The notes beneath the pieces were generated by a model. That model had not been told where the DNA came from and made no database searches. It saw only the letters and a list, made by a program, of their open reading frames with translations. Positions 3,168 to 26,760 of a stretch of DNA of 35,503 nucleotides are shown in pieces (position 1 is the stretch's first letter; each line of letters opens with the position of its first letter). Both the position numbers and the translations under genes were made by a program. The DNA is from a virus (taxonomy: Duplodnaviria > Heunggongvirae > Uroviricota > Caudoviricetes): the IMG/VR virus record IMGVR_UViG_2896595138_000012, one strand, 5' to 3'.

Positions 3168-3371
3168 ATGTCAGGTATAACCATCAATATCAATGTGAAT
3201 GCCCCCTATGTATCCCTGCAGAAATATGCAGAGATAACAGGTATCCCTCTTAATACATGCAAAAAGATGTTGGCTGACGGTCGAATTATTATCCGCCCCA
3301 AACGTGCCAAAATGGAAAAGCCTGAAGTAAACCTTGTGGCGATGTTAAAAGACGCTTTGGCTAACAGCTAA
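3168..3371 (+). CDS. Cox-like excisionase/early regulator
   Basis: 67 aa; AGGAGG RBS; PYVSLQKYAEITGIPLNTCKKMLADGRI resembles P2 Cox N-terminal HTH (PYQEFAKLIGKSTGAVRRMIDKGKL, recalled). Confidence 0.5.
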   Translation: MSGITININVNAPYVSLQKYAEITGIPLNTCKKMLADGRIIIRPKRAKMEKPEVNLVAMLKDALANS

Positions 3372-3392: not shown

Positions 3393-3743
3393 ATGAAAAA
3401 AAACGCTAATAATCCATACTCCAAATTTCGTAATGGCGTAGAACGCCATGTACACCACGTTGCTACCAGTGCATCACGTAGCAACATCCGCTACAGCCTG
3501 AGCGATACACACGCAACGCCGGATGGCTACCCCGTAAAACAAATCGGCGAGCACGCCTGGCTGATTGAGAAAGCTGGAATCGTAGTCCACAAATACCCAC
3601 GCAATCCGTTTACCGGAAACCGCATTTTTGCTCTGAGCTGCGGCGACAATCAGTTCGGGCAGGATTTCACGTTGTACGAAGCGCTACGCACAGTTGATCG
3701 CCTTCTTTACGGAGAAAATTTTATTAAACAGGCTGAGTTATAA
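3393..3743 (+). CDS. Hypothetical early protein
   Basis: 116-aa ORF in early operon, protein-like composition. Confidence 0.55.
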   Translation: MKKNANNPYSKFRNGVERHVHHVATSASRSNIRYSLSDTHATPDGYPVKQIGEHAWLIEKAGIVVHKYPRNPFTGNRIFALSCGDNQFGQDFTLYEALRTVDRLLYGENFIKQAEL

Positions 3744-3784: not shown

Positions 3785-4027
3785 ATGAGAAAACACACAG
3801 CAGAACAGGTAAACGAATTTCTGCAGGGATATTACTTCGATAACGAAATTAATCCCCGCGCCAGAAAAACACACTTCGAAGTAATGAAGTGCGGAATATT
3901 CAGCGTCCGCAACACCCTGTTTTGTTCAAAAGATACGGGAGCCAGCGAGGACCTTAAAGAACTTAACCGGATGGCGAAACAATTAATGGATGGCATGGTT
4001 CCCGAACCCGCAATAATTACGGAGTAA
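3785..4027 (+). CDS. Hypothetical early protein
   Basis: 80-aa ORF with GAGGA RBS. Confidence 0.55.
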   Translation: MRKHTAEQVNEFLQGYYFDNEINPRARKTHFEVMKCGIFSVRNTLFCSKDTGASEDLKELNRMAKQLMDGMVPEPAIITE

Positions 4028-4032
4028 TCACG

Positions 4033-4218
4033 ATGAATTTCAGTTATTCATTCAGTGTACCGGAGTCGTTATTTGTTATCACACTGATTGCAGCCGCAAT
4101 GTTTTTTGCCATCTGCATACTGACACTTATTGATACATGGCGGGAAATACGCGACAGACGTCGCCAGAAAAAAAACGGGATGCATACAACGCATTCATTC
4201 AGCACAAAGAAGACGTAG
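4033..4218 (+). CDS. Small single-pass membrane protein
   Basis: 61 aa; GGAG RBS; hydrophobic helix VITLIAAAMFFAICILTLI followed by basic tail. Confidence 0.45.
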   Translation: MNFSYSFSVPESLFVITLIAAAMFFAICILTLIDTWREIRDRRRQKKNGMHTTHSFSTKKT

Positions 4219-21342: not shown

Positions 21343-22467
21343 ATGACGTTTCCACAGGTCACAATTAATCAGCTCAACACCCACAGCGGAAGCAAGCGTG
21401 GGATCGCCTGCACCCTGCTGATGGTGGGCGAGCATACAAAAGCCATTCTCCCGACACCGGTTACAGCACAAACCGATCTTGACTCGCTGTTAGGAACAAA
21501 GGATTCATTGTTACGCAGTAACGTGCAGGCGTTTCTGGATAATGCCGGACAAAATGCCATGATCTGGCTGGCAACCGTGCAGACACCCCAGCCTTCTGGT
21601 CAGACCCGAACGTGGGCTGATGTGGTTATGGATGCACAGGCCACCCTCTCGGTGGAAGGCGTTGTCGTTGTTCGCGCTAACGCCTCAGGTAACGATATCG
21701 ACAAAGCGCAGCAACTGCGCAGCGAACTCAATAACACCTTCCAGCGCTGGACATGGTTTATCCTGGCTGTTCGCGGCTGCGGAACAGGCGAGAAGTGGTC
21801 AGAATACGTCACCGTCATGACCGGACTACAGAAAGGCATTGCCGCTTACGCGGTGCAGCTTACCCCGATGCTGTTCGGCAATGAACCGGGGATACTGGCC
21901 GGTCGCCTTTGCAATCCATCAGTGACGATTGCTGATTCCCCCGCCCGTGTTGCAACCGGCGCACTGGTCAATATGGGCCGCAACGATAAACCGCAGGACA
22001 GCGACAAGCGCGAACTGGACATTGCCACCATCAGGGCCCTGAACAGGGCGCGTTTCAGCGTACCAACGTGGTATCCCGACTACGAAGGTTACTACTGGGC
22101 CGACGGCGTCACGCTCGATGTGGACGGTGGCGATTATCAGGCTATCGAATATCTGCGCGTTGCCGATGAAATGGCCCGTCAGGTGCGTTTGCTGGCTATC
22201 CCAAAAATCGCCAATCGCTCACTGAACTCCACCCCGGCAAGTGTGGCCGCGCACCAACAGCTTTTCGCGAAGCCCATGCGCGACGGCGCAAAGAGCCTGA
22301 AAATCAACGGCACGGTATTCCCTGGCCTTTGCATGTCACCGCACGACGGCGACGTAAAAATCTCATGGCCGGAAAAAGACAAAGTGCAGATTGCGATCGT
22401 GGTTCGCCCGTATAACTGCCCGAAAGAAATCACCATCAGCATCATGCTGGACGAAAGCGGAGAGTAA
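21343..22467 (+). CDS. Contractile tail sheath protein (DUF2586-like)
   Basis: 374 aa directly upstream of the tube gene; size and position typical of a tail sheath. Confidence 0.6.
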   Translation: MTFPQVTINQLNTHSGSKRGIACTLLMVGEHTKAILPTPVTAQTDLDSLLGTKDSLLRSNVQAFLDNAGQNAMIWLATVQTPQPSGQTRTWADVVMDAQATLSVEGVVVVRANASGNDIDKAQQLRSELNNTFQRWTWFILAVRGCGTGEKWSEYVTVMTGLQKGIAAYAVQLTPMLFGNEPGILAGRLCNPSVTIADSPARVATGALVNMGRNDKPQDSDKRELDIATIRALNRARFSVPTWYPDYEGYYWADGVTLDVDGGDYQAIEYLRVADEMARQVRLLAIPKIANRSLNSTPASVAAHQQLFAKPMRDGAKSLKINGTVFPGLCMSPHDGDVKISWPEKDKVQIAIVVRPYNCPKEITISIMLDESGE

Positions 22468-22470
22468 CCC

Positions 22471-22932
22471 ATGAACACCGAACGCATCAGTGGTATGAGC
22501 TTTGACACGTCATTTAATGGCCGCATCGTTCACGTAAAAACCGCCACCCTTGATATTACCGACAACACCAAAGCCATTCAGGAGCGCGGTGTACCTGATG
22601 GCTGGGTACGCGGCGACGTGGAAGCCGGCGGTGAAATTGAACTGGATACCGTTAACTTCCAGCTTCTTGGTGAAGCCGCGCGTGAAGCAGGGAGCTGGCG
22701 CGACATCGAAGAAGCCGACTTTCTCTTCTTTGCCCGTGCAGCAAAGACAGAACTCAGGGTGGAAGCCTTTGGTTGCAAACTGCTGATCAGTAACCTGCTG
22801 AATATCGACAGCAAGGGCGGTGACAACATAAGCCATAAAATCAAATTTATGGTGACTTCGCCGGAGTTCGTCAAAATTGACGGTGTTCCGGTTCTCAGCG
22901 CCACCGATGTTCGGGACATCATGAACCAATAG
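22471..22932 (+). CDS. Tail tube protein (DUF2597-like)
   Basis: 153 aa immediately after sheath gene. Confidence 0.6.
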   Translation: MNTERISGMSFDTSFNGRIVHVKTATLDITDNTKAIQERGVPDGWVRGDVEAGGEIELDTVNFQLLGEAAREAGSWRDIEEADFLFFARAAKTELRVEAFGCKLLISNLLNIDSKGGDNISHKIKFMVTSPEFVKIDGVPVLSATDVRDIMNQ

Positions 22933-23026
22933 GAAAGACAATGCAAAGCACCCCCACAACTGGAGCGACTGGCTGGCGATAATCAAAGACTGGTTACGTG
23001 GTGATATCCCTCTTGACAGTCTGCTG

Positions 23027-23278
23027 ATGACTGCCGTCATTGCAGCACTCAGAGTGTTTTACACAGGCCGCAGCTGGCGTCGTCTTTTGCTTGAGGTGCC
23101 GTTGTGTTGCCTGCTGGCCGTGGCGGCATTCACCCTCATTAAGCCGGTCCCCGTCGCATGGCTGACCGAAGACTGGCGCGTCGGTATCGGTGCCGCAATT
23201 GGCCTTATTGGTGTTGAACATATCCGGGCACTGGGTGTGTTCATCACAAAGAAATTTGCAGGGAAAAGTGACGAATGA
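23027..23278 (+). CDS. Holin (N-terminus probably lies upstream at 22941, see findings)
   Basis: 83 aa with two hydrophobic helices and charged C-terminus; stop overlaps lysozyme start. Confidence 0.6.
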   Translation: MTAVIAALRVFYTGRSWRRLLLEVPLCCLLAVAAFTLIKPVPVAWLTEDWRVGIGAAIGLIGVEHIRALGVFITKKFAGKSDE

Positions 23279-23718
23279 AAATTTCAGACAACGGGCTGGC
23301 CGCACTTAAACGCGAAGAAAACTGCAAACTGACCGCTTACCCCGATCCGCGCGGCGTATGGACCATTGGTACAGGTCACACAGGAAAGGTTGATGGTGTC
23401 GCAGTTCACAAAGGCATGACCATCACCCAGGACACCGCCGACAGACTGCTACGCGACGATCTGTCATGGGTGGAGCACTGCATCGCTGAACGGGTAACAG
23501 TTCCGCTGAACCAGAGTCAGTATGACGCGTTGTGTAGCCTGATTTTCAATATCGGCGCTGACGCTTTTATCGGTTCCACCGTTCGCCGTCAGTTAAACGC
23601 CGGCAACTACACCGCCGCCGCTGATGCTTTCCTGAAATGGAGCCGCGCAGGCAGTAACCCGACAATTCTGGCCCCGCGTCGCGGACGTGAGCGGGCAATG
23701 TTTCTGGGACAGAGGTAA
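23275..23718 (+). CDS. Phage lysozyme / endolysin (GH24, T4-lysozyme-like)
   Basis: 147 aa; catalytic E-x9-D-x5-T triad region REENCKLTAYPDPRGVWTIGTGHT. Confidence 0.85.
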   Translation: MKISDNGLAALKREENCKLTAYPDPRGVWTIGTGHTGKVDGVAVHKGMTITQDTADRLLRDDLSWVEHCIAERVTVPLNQSQYDALCSLIFNIGADAFIGSTVRRQLNAGNYTAAADAFLKWSRAGSNPTILAPRRGRERAMFLGQR

Positions 23719-23724
23719 GGCCAC

Positions 23725-24189
23725 ATGAAACGCGCAACACTCGCCTTTATCGTCTTCATGGTCGTCGCCGTGGCCGTGCTCGGCTTCACAGCTGACTACT
23801 GGCACAACCGCTTCACCAGGGCAGAAAAAGCCCGCCAGAAAGCCGTAAATCTTGCCGACACCCGACAGCAGACCATTGACGACATGACACTGCGTCAGCG
23901 CCAGAACGCCGCGCTTGATGCGAAATACACAAAGGAGCTCGCCAATGCAAAAGCTGAATCCGAAAAGTTACGCGCCGATCTTGCTTCTGGCCGTCGCCGG
24001 TTGCAGCTCCACGCCGTCTGTATGCCCGCCGCCACGCGTGATACCACCGCCACCGGCTCAACTGATGCAACCGCCGCCCGACTTACTCCGGACGCTGAAC
24101 GGGATTATCAGCATCTCAGAGCCGAAGCGAAAGCCGTCGTTGCACAAGTGAACGGCCTGCAACAGTACATTACTGAACAATGTCATTAA
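23725..24189 (+). CDS. Rz-like i-spanin
   Basis: 154 aa; N-terminal TM anchor then charged coiled-coil periplasmic domain; follows lysozyme. Confidence 0.7.
   Translation: MKRATLAFIVFMVVAVAVLGFTADYWHNRFTRAEKARQKAVNLADTRQQTIDDMTLRQRQNAALDAKYTKELANAKAESEKLRADLASGRRRLQLHAVCMPAATRDTTATGSTDATAARLTPDAERDYQHLRAEAKAVVAQVNGLQQYITEQCH
23945..24151 (+). CDS. Rz1-like o-spanin lipoprotein (embedded in Rz, +1 frame)
   Basis: AGGAG RBS; signal peptide with lipobox LAVAGC; proline-rich mature part. Confidence 0.7.
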   Translation: MQKLNPKSYAPILLLAVAGCSSTPSVCPPPRVIPPPPAQLMQPPPDLLRTLNGIISISEPKRKPSLHK

Positions 24190-24192
24190 AAA

Positions 24193-24492
24193 ATGGCACC
24201 ACTCACCGGGGAAAATAGCATGAAAGACGAAAATACCACCATCATCACCCTGACCGTCGCAGGCGAGGACATTCGCTTCGCCCCGACCGAAGCTGTCTAC
24301 AACAAGTTCGTGAATGAAATAACGATGGATAACAAGGTGGCGCCAGCCAAAAACTACCTGATGCGCTGTGTACACCCGGAAGACAAAGAGAAACTGGAGA
24401 AGCTCATTCACCGCCCGGGAGCAGCCCTTCAGATGGCAGCAAAACTCAATGAAGATTTTGCCGTCAATCTGGATATCACCGTAAAAAAATAA
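24193..24492 (+). CDS. Tail assembly chaperone (P2 gpE-like); -1 frameshift product would extend to 24680
   Basis: 99 aa ending VKK at an A AAA AAA heptamer directly before the tape measure gene. Confidence 0.65.
   Translation: MAPLTGENSMKDENTTIITLTVAGEDIRFAPTEAVYNKFVNEITMDNKVAPAKNYLMRCVHPEDKEKLEKLIHRPGAALQMAAKLNEDFAVNLDITVKK
24483..24489 (+). other. Programmed -1 ribosomal frameshift slippery heptamer
   Basis: A_AAA_AAA in X_XXY_YYZ register at the last two codons of the chaperone; -1 frame open to a TAA at 24678-24680. Confidence 0.6.
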
Positions 24493-24819
24493 AGGCGGCA
24501 CTGTCCGGCATTGAGCGCAACGGCTACGCGCAATATCTGGTATTACGCCGCCACTGGCTACCGGATGGCGAGGACACACCGGAAGACATTGCCGCTGCGG
24601 TCTGGCTGGACAACCGTTATTTCGAAAACATGAGTATTGCCGTCAATAACGGCATTGCGAGAGCATTTAAAGGTGGGTAATGGCTGCTGAACTTGATTTT
24701 ACGCTAAGTCTGGTTGATAAGCTGACGAGACCCTTAAAACAGGCGCAATCGGCTGTGACCGGATTTGCTGACAAGGCAACAGCCGACTTTAAACGTCTCG
24801 GTTTTGGTGTGGCCGGGTT

Positions 24820-26760
24820 ATGGGGGCTGCTCAGGGAATAAAAGGACTGGTCAACCCCGCCCGCGACATGGAAGCCGCGCTGGCCGAAGTCAGCTCGCTG
24901 GATGTGGCAAATAAAACACTCGATCAGCTGCGTAAAACTTCACAGACGTTTGCCATTAACTACGGCGAAAGCGCCAGCAATTTCGTCCGCAGCGCCTACG
25001 ATATCCAGTCCGCCATCGCAGGACTTCAGGGTGACGAACTGCCAAAATTTACTGAAGCATCCGCCATTCTCGCCAAAGCCACCAAATCAGACACGGCCAC
25101 CATTACTAACTATATGGGCACCATGTACGGTGTTTTTAAAAATACCGCAGAGAAGATGGGGCGCACGCAGTGGGTTGAACAAATTGCCGGGCAGACCGCA
25201 ACCGCCGTTCAGGTGTTCAAAACTACCGGTAATGAAATGTCTGCTGCCTTTACTGCGCTGGGTGCCAACGCGCAGGCAATGAAGGTATCTGCCGCTGAAC
25301 AGTTCGCCGTACTGGGACAGCTCCAGTCCACCATGTCAGGCAGCGAGGCGGGAACCAAATATAAATCATTCCTGGCGGGGATTGGGAATGCGCAAAAAGT
25401 GCTGGGGCTGAACTTTACCAACCGGGACGGCAGTGCCAGAAGCATTACCGGTATCATCGACCTGATTAAAGGAAAGTTTGGCGATCTGTCAAAAGTGGCA
25501 GATGCAGACCTGCTGAAAAAAGCCTTTGGCAGCGATGAAGCGGTGTCCATGATTAAACTACTGACCGGAGATGTTGACGGGCTGAAACGGAACATCAATA
25601 CATTAGGTAACATCAAAGGCATGGATAAAGCCATCGAAATGGCGAAAAAGATGGTTGACCCGTGGGATCAGGTTAATTCTTTACTGGAGCAGGTTCGCGT
25701 CAGCATTGGTCTGCGGCTCGATCCCGTCTTTGCCCCGTTCCTGCAAAAAATCATCACCGGCGGGAAAGCCTTCATGAAATGGCTGGATACGTTCCCCAAT
25801 ATTGCCCGCTGGCTGGGATATATCACTGCAATGACCCTCGCCTTTGCCGCAGCAGGGGCGCTTGCCAGTATCACGATGGGGGCCTTCGGCTTTATCATGA
25901 CCGGGCTCAGCGGAATTGCTGGCGTGCTGAAAGGCGCATGGAAAGGACTAATCTTCACCCTGGATTTATTACGCCCCTCCCTGCTTTCAACCCGTCTTGG
26001 CCTGATGGGGCTATGGATTCAGGAAAAAGCCGTCTGGGTGTGGTCAAAGCTGGTCGCTCTTTGGGCAGGGATCTGTAAAGCAGCGATCGTAGCCTGGAAC
26101 GTAGTGTTACGTGCGGGCGCGGTTGCAATGCGCCTGTGGGGCGTGGCGACGGCATTCGCAGGCGGTGCGCTTCAACTCCTGATAAGTCCCATAACCCTGA
26201 TTATTCTCGCCATTGCCGCACTTGCCGTAGGGATCTGTCTGGCTATCAAATACTGGGACAGTATTAAAGCCGCCATCATGGACACGGAAGCTTTCAGTGC
26301 CCTGCTAAAAGTCATTAACGCTGTGGTGGGCTGGTTTGATGATGCATGGAACAGCATTAAAGCCGGATGGGACAATCTGACGAACTGGTTTAAAAATTTC
26401 TCGCTGGCCGACACATTCGGCAATATCACAGCTGGAATTGGCAAGCTCTTTGACGGCATATGGGATTCCATTAAGAGCGCCTTTACCGGGACATGGAACT
26501 GGATAGCAGAGAAGCTCAACAAAATCCCCGGTGTCAATATCAGCACCGCACAACAGACCGTCGCACCGACACCCGCCCCGGAGCTTATCACTGGCAACCG
26601 TAGCGCCGCCATCCAGGGCGGGCCGGTAAGTCACCAGATAAGCAACAACCGGGGCGACAAAGTCACCAATAACAACGTTAAGCAGGATATCACACTGCAC
26701 GTTGACACCCTGGCGACACCGGGACAACTGGCGGAATACAGCGAACTGGCAGCGGGGTGA
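24820..26760 (+). CDS. Tail tape measure protein (5' end apparently frameshifted; true start probably 24680)
   Basis: 646 aa, Ala/Gly-rich with central hydrophobic segments; follows chaperone pair. Confidence 0.8.
   Translation: MGAAQGIKGLVNPARDMEAALAEVSSLDVANKTLDQLRKTSQTFAINYGESASNFVRSAYDIQSAIAGLQGDELPKFTEASAILAKATKSDTATITNYMGTMYGVFKNTAEKMGRTQWVEQIAGQTATAVQVFKTTGNEMSAAFTALGANAQAMKVSAAEQFAVLGQLQSTMSGSEAGTKYKSFLAGIGNAQKVLGLNFTNRDGSARSITGIIDLIKGKFGDLSKVADADLLKKAFGSDEAVSMIKLLTGDVDGLKRNINTLGNIKGMDKAIEMAKKMVDPWDQVNSLLEQVRVSIGLRLDPVFAPFLQKIITGGKAFMKWLDTFPNIARWLGYITAMTLAFAAAGALASITMGAFGFIMTGLSGIAGVLKGAWKGLIFTLDLLRPSLLSTRLGLMGLWIQEKAVWVWSKLVALWAGICKAAIVAWNVVLRAGAVAMRLWGVATAFAGGALQLLISPITLIILAIAALAVGICLAIKYWDSIKAAIMDTEAFSALLKVINAVVGWFDDAWNSIKAGWDNLTNWFKNFSLADTFGNITAGIGKLFDGIWDSIKSAFTGTWNWIAEKLNKIPGVNISTAQQTVAPTPAPELITGNRSAAIQGGPVSHQISNNRGDKVTNNNVKQDITLHVDTLATPGQLAEYSELAAG

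Follow-up and report, generated by a model that had tools for sequence, protein, structure and literature searches.

The 35,503-nucleotide stretch of viral DNA analysed here (the window) very probably carries, at positions 24483–24489, a programmed −1 ribosomal frameshift site of the tail-assembly-chaperone type. The observation made in the initial annotation was confirmed as correct, and it concerns an ordinary, well-understood feature that had previously gone unannotated here. The elements of the site and its surroundings are as follows.

24220–24492, plus strand: chaperone open reading frame in the zero frame, 90 amino acids, matching Pfam Phage_TAC_10.
24483–24489, plus strand: slippery heptamer A_AAA_AAA (X_XXY_YYZ), formed by the third base of a GTA codon and two AAA lysine codons.
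24490–24492, plus strand: zero-frame TAA stop directly 3' of the heptamer, ending the short product.
24489–24680, plus strand: −1 extension (IKAALSG...AFKGG), 63 sense codons and a TAA, matching Pfam DUF6890 and phrog_7050.
24669–24677, plus strand: AAAGGTGGG, a putative Shine-Dalgarno-like element ahead of the tape measure ATG and within the last −1 codons.
24680–24682, plus strand: tape measure ATG, overlapping the −1 TAA as TAATG.
24680–26760, plus strand: tape measure gene (Pfam PhageMin_Tail), split into 24680–24841 and 24820–26760.

The majority of ribosomes translating the chaperone gene would read its last codons as ...V K K, stop at the TAA at 24490–24492 and release the 90-amino-acid chaperone. 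A minority would slip one base back on A_AAA_AAA in a classical tandem slip, tRNA-Lys finding a perfect match again in the −1 frame, and would then take AUA as the next codon, continuing as ...VKK-IKAALSG... for 63 codons through DUF6890 to a stop that overlaps the tape measure ATG. The predicted fusion of 153 amino acids would carry the same N-terminal chaperone domain as the short product. By analogy with lambda and P2, the domain common to both products would serve to coat the tape measure protein and the extension to recruit the tube protein, and the frequency of slipping would set a fixed ratio between the two products.

The chaperone reading frame ends ...ATC ACC GTA AAA AAA TAA on the plus strand, and the region holds one A7 run only, at 24483–24489. 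With codon starts at positions ≡ 1 mod 3 in this frame, the run divides into A_AAA_AAA, and the claim that the chaperone ends on this heptamer in the X_XXY_YYZ register held when checked against the codon phase. Upstream of the heptamer, where an internal Shine-Dalgarno-like stimulator would lie about 10–14 nt away, inspection by eye showed only a weak GGA in CTGGATATCACCGT.

An in-frame ATG at 24193, upstream of the one at 24220, would lengthen the chaperone to 99 amino acids. Residues 18–99 of this longer form match Phage_TAC_10 across the whole profile (E 4.5e-31, 107.3 bits against a cut-off of 25.7). Database homologues of the protein have 89–91 amino acids and begin with MKDEN or MKQEN, which makes the ATG at 24220 a likelier start than the one at 24193, and PGAP called the 90-amino-acid form in the near-identical prophage of CFSAN029787. 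Judged by these sequences, translation of the chaperone most likely begins at 24220.

The genes on either side place the chaperone within a contractile-tail module of the HP1 type, in which the order is sheath, tube, lysis cassette, chaperone and then the tape measure gene (PhageMin_Tail) from 24680.

21343–22467: sheath gene (DUF2586) of the tail module.
22471–22932: tube gene (HP1 Orf24-type) of the tail module.
Between the tube gene and the chaperone: a cassette of holin, lysozyme (endolysin) and spanin genes.
Past the tape measure gene: genes for DUF2590, Baseplate_J and P2 gpI-like proteins, in the same HP1-type contractile-tail module.

With a Phage_TAC_10 chaperone directly 5' of the tape measure gene and a DUF2586 sheath and an HP1 Orf24-type tube nearby, the assignment of this region to a tail module was upheld.

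Translation of the −1 frame from 24489 gives IKAALSGIERNGYAQYLVLRRHWLPDGEDTPEDIAAAVWLDNRYFENMSIAVNNGIARAFKGG, followed by the TAA at 24678–24680. The initial annotation had described this frame as open for 62 codons; the open frame is there, but we counted 63 sense codons. Joined to the chaperone, the extension would yield the predicted junction peptide ...NLDITVKKIKAALSGIE within the 153-amino-acid fusion, or within one of 162 amino acids if translation began at the upstream ATG. The −1 peptide matches DUF6890 (E 6e-24, 84 bits against a cut-off of 23.6) and phrog_7050, a family of 'unknown function' (E 4.9e-24). Phage_TAC_10 and DUF6890 are thus both found above their curated cut-offs in adjacent frames, and the same two-frame pair occurs in HP1, HP2, K139 and others. 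A search of the protein database for homologues fused in a single frame returned none except one 96-amino-acid deletion product.

Structure prediction gave no information on the extension. A single-sequence AlphaFold model showed no confident fold for the extension (pLDDT 62 overall, <50 for the extension), and Foldseek searches with this model gave no match at E ≤ 1e-3. Among the weaker Foldseek matches were the HK97 tail assembly chaperone 2ob9 (E 2.1) and BFVD models named 'tail assembly chaperone' (E 0.05–0.4), and the modelled chaperone domain may thus weakly recall tail-assembly-chaperone folds. A sequence search of the PDB found no relevant solved structure.

Taken by itself, the window gives modest evidence beyond chance. 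Runs of seven A's are not enriched in it (17 observed, 10 ± 4 expected), and in this compact stretch 37% of plus-strand reading frames end where the −1 frame is open for 63 codons or more; of shuffled versions of the −1 stretch, 5% stay open. An open −1 frame is weak evidence when considered alone. No other in-register X_XXY_YYZ heptamer in the window, however, lies directly against a stop codon as the one at 24483–24489 does. These background rates are what an explanation by coincidence would draw on, in which an A7 run happens to lie at the end of a gene with the −1 frame open behind it, or in which the junction belongs to a decaying pseudogene; the adjacent tape measure gene does carry a frameshift mutation. 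Such an origin is extremely improbable given the strength of the DUF6890 match and the comparative data, which exclude it by showing the arrangement conserved, with coding periodicity, at every related locus examined. Protein-family and comparative data are accordingly the decisive evidence for the putative frameshift site.

For this comparison, relatives were gathered by alignment of chaperone homologues, which contributed 80 IMG/VR loci and 18 loci from GTDB genomes, the hosts of the latter including Buttiauxella, Erwinia, Enterobacter, Kluyvera, Salmonella, Morganella, Rahnella, Ewingella, Brenneria and Pectobacterium. The full set comprised 110 related loci, 93 of them non-redundant, and included HP1, K139, phiO18P, F108, phi3, ACA1 and enterobacterial prophages. 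Conservation of the −1 frame in related phages was one of the points on which the initial annotation had staked its reading, and the position of the heptamer together with the open −1 frame was kept in 110 of 110 loci. The heptamer itself was A_AAA_AAC in 85 of the non-redundant sequences, A_AAA_AAA in seven and A_AAA_AAG in one. A stop codon abuts it in 91 of the 93, the exceptions being ACA1 and phi3, where the zero frame runs on for 7 codons.

All 101 enterobacterial loci have A_AAA_AAA or A_AAA_AAC next to a stop codon, a conserved −1 reading frame of 63–64 codons, and an overlap between the −1 stop and the start of the next gene (ATGA, TAATG or GTGA), an overlap also seen in most relatives. 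Their chaperones end in [GC]TA AAA AAA TAA in the clade of the window or in [GC]TA AAA AAC followed by TGA, TAA or TAG in the other enterobacterial loci, and their extensions share the consensus ...RRHYLP...AAxWLDNRxWENMxIAxANGIxxAFKG. When the fused product was searched by tblastn against 50,697 phage records, 76 records matched, each in two pieces. Nine more distant phages were read individually, and all switch by exactly −1 with a heptamer at the junction. Heptamers in named phages are as follows.

A_AAA_AAC: HP1, K139, phiO18P, F108, YenM_324 and SI7.
A_AAA_AAA: ACA1 and yong1.
A_AAA_AAG: phi3.

In the extension, pairwise comparison of the 93 non-redundant sequences gave mean divergences of 0.23, 0.17 and 0.49 at the first, second and third codon positions of the −1 frame. 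Over the same stretch the other sense frames carry stops (1–5 in the zero frame), and nearly all 93 sequences have stops in each of the three antisense frames. The −1 frame opens only 3–13 codons ahead of the point at which the new frame begins (3 codons in most relatives), and no start codon is conserved within it: the reading frame lacks an ATG altogether in 30 of 93 relatives, an ATG occurs most often at codon 47 of 63, and the position of the first ATG, GTG or TTG is scattered. These are the signatures of a segment that evolves like coding sequence and would be reachable only by a −1 frame change at the heptamer.

The same features bear on the idea that DUF6890 is an independent small gene with its own internal start and that the heptamer is incidental. 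Gene callers have in effect proposed this: PGAP/RefSeq lists a separate 30-amino-acid 'DUF6890 family protein' in CFSAN029787, several phage records carry a small hypothetical reading frame at this place, and database entries range from 37 to 59 amino acids. The annotated N-termini differ between these entries, however, and conservation covers the first ~18 residues of the extension, which lie 5' of every candidate start. In the window the −1 frame reaches back no further than 12 codons 5' of the point where the new frame begins, and because it is shut so shortly 5' of the heptamer, there is no room for a long independent gene. The scattered or missing start codons, the narrow opening of the frame ahead of the junction in relatives and the fixed position of the heptamer in phages of hosts from Haemophilus to Pseudoalteromonas all speak against a separate gene as well. 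The 'GpE family' entries of P2 are the same annotation artefact, and the P2 record itself annotates E+E' as a −1 frameshift product. We consider an independent gene very unlikely.

A change of frame could also arise mainly during transcription, with RNA polymerase adding one A in the A7 run and the chaperone and DUF6890 thereby coming to lie in one frame. An A8 transcript would encode the identical ...VKKIKAALS... product, and the clade of the window did go from A6C to A7 and is without the hairpin of its relatives. Yet 86 of the 93 non-redundant relatives have six A's only (85 A6C, 1 A6G), whereas efficient polymerase slippage typically needs about 9 or more identical bases; the run here is of 7 A, and transcriptional slippage sites are recognized by runs of at least 9 that are conserved in length rather than in register. 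E. coli genes contain AAAAAAA less often than expected whichever the frame, an avoidance that may reflect slippage of this kind (Sharma et al., PMC4066793). At the loci compared here the codon register is strictly conserved, which ribosomal slippage requires and transcriptional slippage does not. Six-A runs in a strictly kept codon register, which are classical heptamers for tandem slippage, therefore indicate the ribosome. We infer that the slippage is ribosomal and regard a mainly transcriptional mechanism as unlikely, though polymerase slippage on A7 may contribute in the clade of the window.

How often ribosomes would slip can be gauged from work on other phages. A review that describes the conserved G-T frameshift ranks A_AAA_AAG as far more shift-prone in E. 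coli than either A_AAA_AAA or A_AAA_AAC (PMC5009743), and the efficiency of slipping is for this reason probably low in the window. The ratio of G to GT is ~30:1 in lambda, and frameshifting in P2 is 2–3-fold higher (PMC5009743). A weak heptamer fits the low-level frameshifting that is typical of this gene pair.

The initial annotation had also suggested looking downstream of the heptamer for a stimulatory structure, which at sites of the dnaX, IS911 or IS3 type is a stable hairpin or pseudoknot that begins about 5–9 nt 3' of the heptamer, and none was supported in the window by folding z-scores, Rfam or RNAalifold. The sequence 3' of the heptamer folds no better than its shuffles (z +0.16 for 45 nt, −1.37 for 70 nt and −0.51 for 81 nt), Rfam gave no match in 24300–24900, and RNAalifold found no consensus structure among 26 diverse relatives. 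One candidate stem, GGCGGC/GCCGCC (24494–24499 with 24547–24552), was rejected on the ground that it did no better than shuffled sequence.

Structures are present in other lineages. In many A_AAA_AAC relatives, which form an ESSI-2-like clade, an 8-bp hairpin starts 8 nt past the heptamer. All 8 pairs form in 39 of 60 non-redundant sequences, with compensatory changes from CCG/CGG to CCA/UGG, and 69% of alignment cells are paired compared with at most 48% when the partners are slid. The hairpin is absent from the clade of the window, where 1 of its 8 pairs is formed. Other strong hairpins were found in yong1 (14 bp) and, further downstream, in F108. Stimulators of frameshifting thus appear, from these sequences, to be clade-specific. 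Phages from those of Haemophilus to those of Pseudoalteromonas all keep the heptamer, and the downstream RNA structures come and go by clade.

The zero-frame stop that abuts the heptamer could itself contribute. So-called 'shifty stops' have reportedly been described in E. coli (Weiss et al. 1987; Horsfield et al. 1995), and slow termination at such a stop could favour slippage in the window through a 'shifty stop' pause. More tentatively, the clade of the window may have swapped one frameshift signal for another, losing the 8-bp hairpin and changing its heptamer to A_AAA_AAA beside UAA, with the product ratio then set by a structure-independent 'shifty stop' slip and perhaps also by RNA polymerase slippage on A7. 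We hold this to be a rather doubtful scenario; if true, it would be a case of natural stimulator turnover within one homologous frameshift site.

Downstream, the proposal that the −1 TAA at 24678–24680 overlaps the start of the tape measure gene proved right, the last A of the stop being shared with the ATG at 24680. This ATG is also the annotated start in near-identical E. coli prophages (PGAP, CFSAN029787), and the overlap with the −1 stop recurs in most relatives, both of which support 24680 as the tape measure start. The intact tape measure protein of these near-identical prophages has 693 amino acids. In the window, the gene is interrupted after 47 codons by a 1-nt deletion, and the reading frame from 24680 reaches a stop after 53 codons, with the remainder of the gene (24820–26760) in the −1 frame. 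Alignment located the difference to a run of G's at 24822–24826, which is G5 in the window and G6 in CFSAN029787. None of the nine close relatives has the deletion: CFSAN029787 and six IMG/VR copies have G6, and two others have GGGGTG. The G5 run is thus a unique homopolymer deletion, either a sequencing error or an inactivating mutation. If the deletion is real, the prophage would not build normal tails, and it may make no tails at all. The chaperone frameshift site is unaffected by this deletion.

By analogy, the predicted zero-frame product corresponds to lambda gpG and P2 gpE, and the −1 segment to the T segment of lambda and the E' segment of P2. The initial annotation had matched the locus to lambda G/GT and P2 E/E+E'; this match stands for the arrangement only, without detectable homology, and the window has TAC_10 and DUF6890 where P2 has TAC_7 and Phage_P2_GpE. 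With P2, the window shares membership of the Peduoviridae, a contractile tail, a chaperone of ~90 amino acids directly 5' of the tape measure gene, and a homopolymeric heptamer, close to the 3' end of the chaperone gene, as the site of the −1 shift. In both, the extension is ~57–63 codons long and its end overlaps the start of the tape measure gene (T in P2), and in both, gene callers list the extension as a stand-alone small protein ('GpE family phage tail protein'). The E+E' frameshift product of P2 was reportedly shown experimentally by Christie et al. in 2002.

P2 differs from the window in several respects. Its heptamer is T_TTT_TTG and its zero frame runs 6 codons beyond it; its proteins belong to Pfam Phage_TAC_7 and Phage_P2_GpE, whereas those of the window match only TAC_10 and DUF6890; and its chaperone directly follows the tube gene, whereas in the window the holin/endolysin/spanin cassette lies between the two. 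Remote homology to P2 was sought and rejected, with profile–profile comparison by hhalign giving a probability of 0.3% for DUF6890 against GpE' and for TAC_10 against gpE, and BLASTP giving an E value of 0.2. An HW-P...W motif considered as a sign of homology to P2 was not significant.

Lambda shares with the window two products with a common N-terminal domain, made by a low-level −1 shift near the end of a gene that lies just 5' of the tape measure gene. It differs in having a non-contractile tail and in that the function of its two proteins has been demonstrated experimentally, whereas a function in the window is proposed by analogy. The lambda slip site is G_GGA_AAG. Work on lambda gpG and gpGT (Levin et al. 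1993; Xu et al. 2004, 2013, 2014) is summarised in PMC5009743, and neither G nor GT is present in mature lambda virions (PMC5009743).

Closer counterparts are found in orf26 of HP1, orf30 of K139 and gp36/gp36a of Pseudoalteromonas phage ACA1, which share with the window the TAC_10 and DUF6890 families, the position of the heptamer, the −1 extension and the gene order, at identities of 35–47% in the chaperone part and 30–43% in the extension. ACA1, like phi3, differs in the 7 zero-frame codons past its heptamer. Sequence comparison thus identifies the locus as the HP1-type counterpart of lambda G/GT and P2 E/E+E', with the HP1-like phages as its true relatives.

Among the GenBank records examined, the frameshift is annotated in one only, OR438928 of phage ACA1, where gp36a is entered as a joined coding sequence with a projected programmed frameshift, citing the P2 paper (Christie et al. 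2002, PMID 12426340), to which PMC5009743 also refers. It is absent from the annotation of HP1, K139, phiO18P, F108, phi3, SI7, YenM_324 and ESSI-2-like records and from that of RefSeq E. coli prophages. Literature searches on DUF6890 and Phage_TAC_10 and on a frameshift in the HP1 chaperone found no paper, and the paper on ACA1 does not discuss a chaperone frameshift.

The site adds nothing new in principle, as conserved chaperone frameshifts were already known, from 1993 in lambda, from 2002 in P2 and from 2004 in long-tailed phages at large. Its main value lies in annotation, in a two-frame chaperone that RefSeq and most GenBank phage records have missed. Recognizing it would correct gene models across HP1-like Peduoviridae, and it confirms the map of the tail module and the tape measure start in the window. 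If DUF6890 is taken to be the −1 extension of Phage_TAC_10 chaperones, the DUF6890/phrog_7050 family also gains a probable role.

The final 30 codons of the −1 extension (window 24588–24680; 3989–4081 in the related locus L002) are annotated in RefSeq by PGAP as a "DUF6890 family protein" in its own right. DUF6890 database entries range from 37 to 59 aa in length and have arbitrary N-termini. The most fitting interpretation of Pfam DUF6890 and of phrog_7050 ("unknown function") is that they represent the segment added to Phage_TAC_10 chaperones by the frameshift, and the "GpE family phage tail protein" entries of P2 represent the same annotation artefact. The sole database protein carrying PF10963 and PF21830 in one frame is P0030, a 96 aa protein from Salmonella enterica serovar Montevideo. 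It appears to have an internal deletion that joins the chaperone sequence ...KNYL to the extension sequence RRHWLP..., and looks like the product of a deletion, not a fusion that arose naturally in frame.

Taken at its longest, the chaperone ORF begins at 24193, whereas homologues and the PGAP annotation use ATG 24220 (MKDENTT...). This second ATG is preceded by GGGGAAAATAGC, so the probable lengths are 90 aa for the chaperone and 153 aa for the fusion. The lysis genes lie upstream:

22940–24189, lysis cassette: lambda-family holin, lysozyme (23275–23718) and Rz-like protein (23725–24189)

As in HP1, this cassette separates the tube gene from the chaperone. Nested in the Rz-like gene in another frame is an ORF (23915–24151) with a lipobox-like LLLAVAGCSS motif, which looks like an Rz1-type o-spanin.

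Besides the chaperone site, the only in-register X_XXY_YYZ heptamer ≤40 nt from the end of a + strand ORF in the window is A_AAT_TTT at 3716–3722, located 18 nt ahead of the stop of the + strand ORF 3393–3743, and it is probably incidental. The gene downstream of the chaperone is interrupted in the window:

24680–26760, + strand, tape measure gene, split by a 1-nt deletion into two ORFs (24680–24841 and 24820–26760)

The G run at 24822–24826 is G5 in the window, compared to G6 or GGGGTG in nine close relatives; uninterrupted, the gene encodes a protein of 693 aa. The deletion is either an error made in sequencing the homopolymer or a mutation that inactivates the gene. A −1 slip of tRNA-Gly on this G run would regain the wild-type ...LWGAAQG... 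sequence, but there is no sign that such a slip is programmed.

Many relatives have a hairpin that starts 8 nt 3' of the A_AAA_AAC heptamer and is marked by compensatory changes:

3201–3231 of the related locus L001, with equivalents in ESSI-2-like loci: 8-bp hairpin pairing columns 16–23 with 39–46 of A3, the alignment of relatives

This 8-bp hairpin is missing from the window's own A_AAA_AAA clade, and the more distant phages yong1 and F108 have strong hairpins that are unlike it. This pattern suggests that frameshift stimulators turn over within one homologous site.
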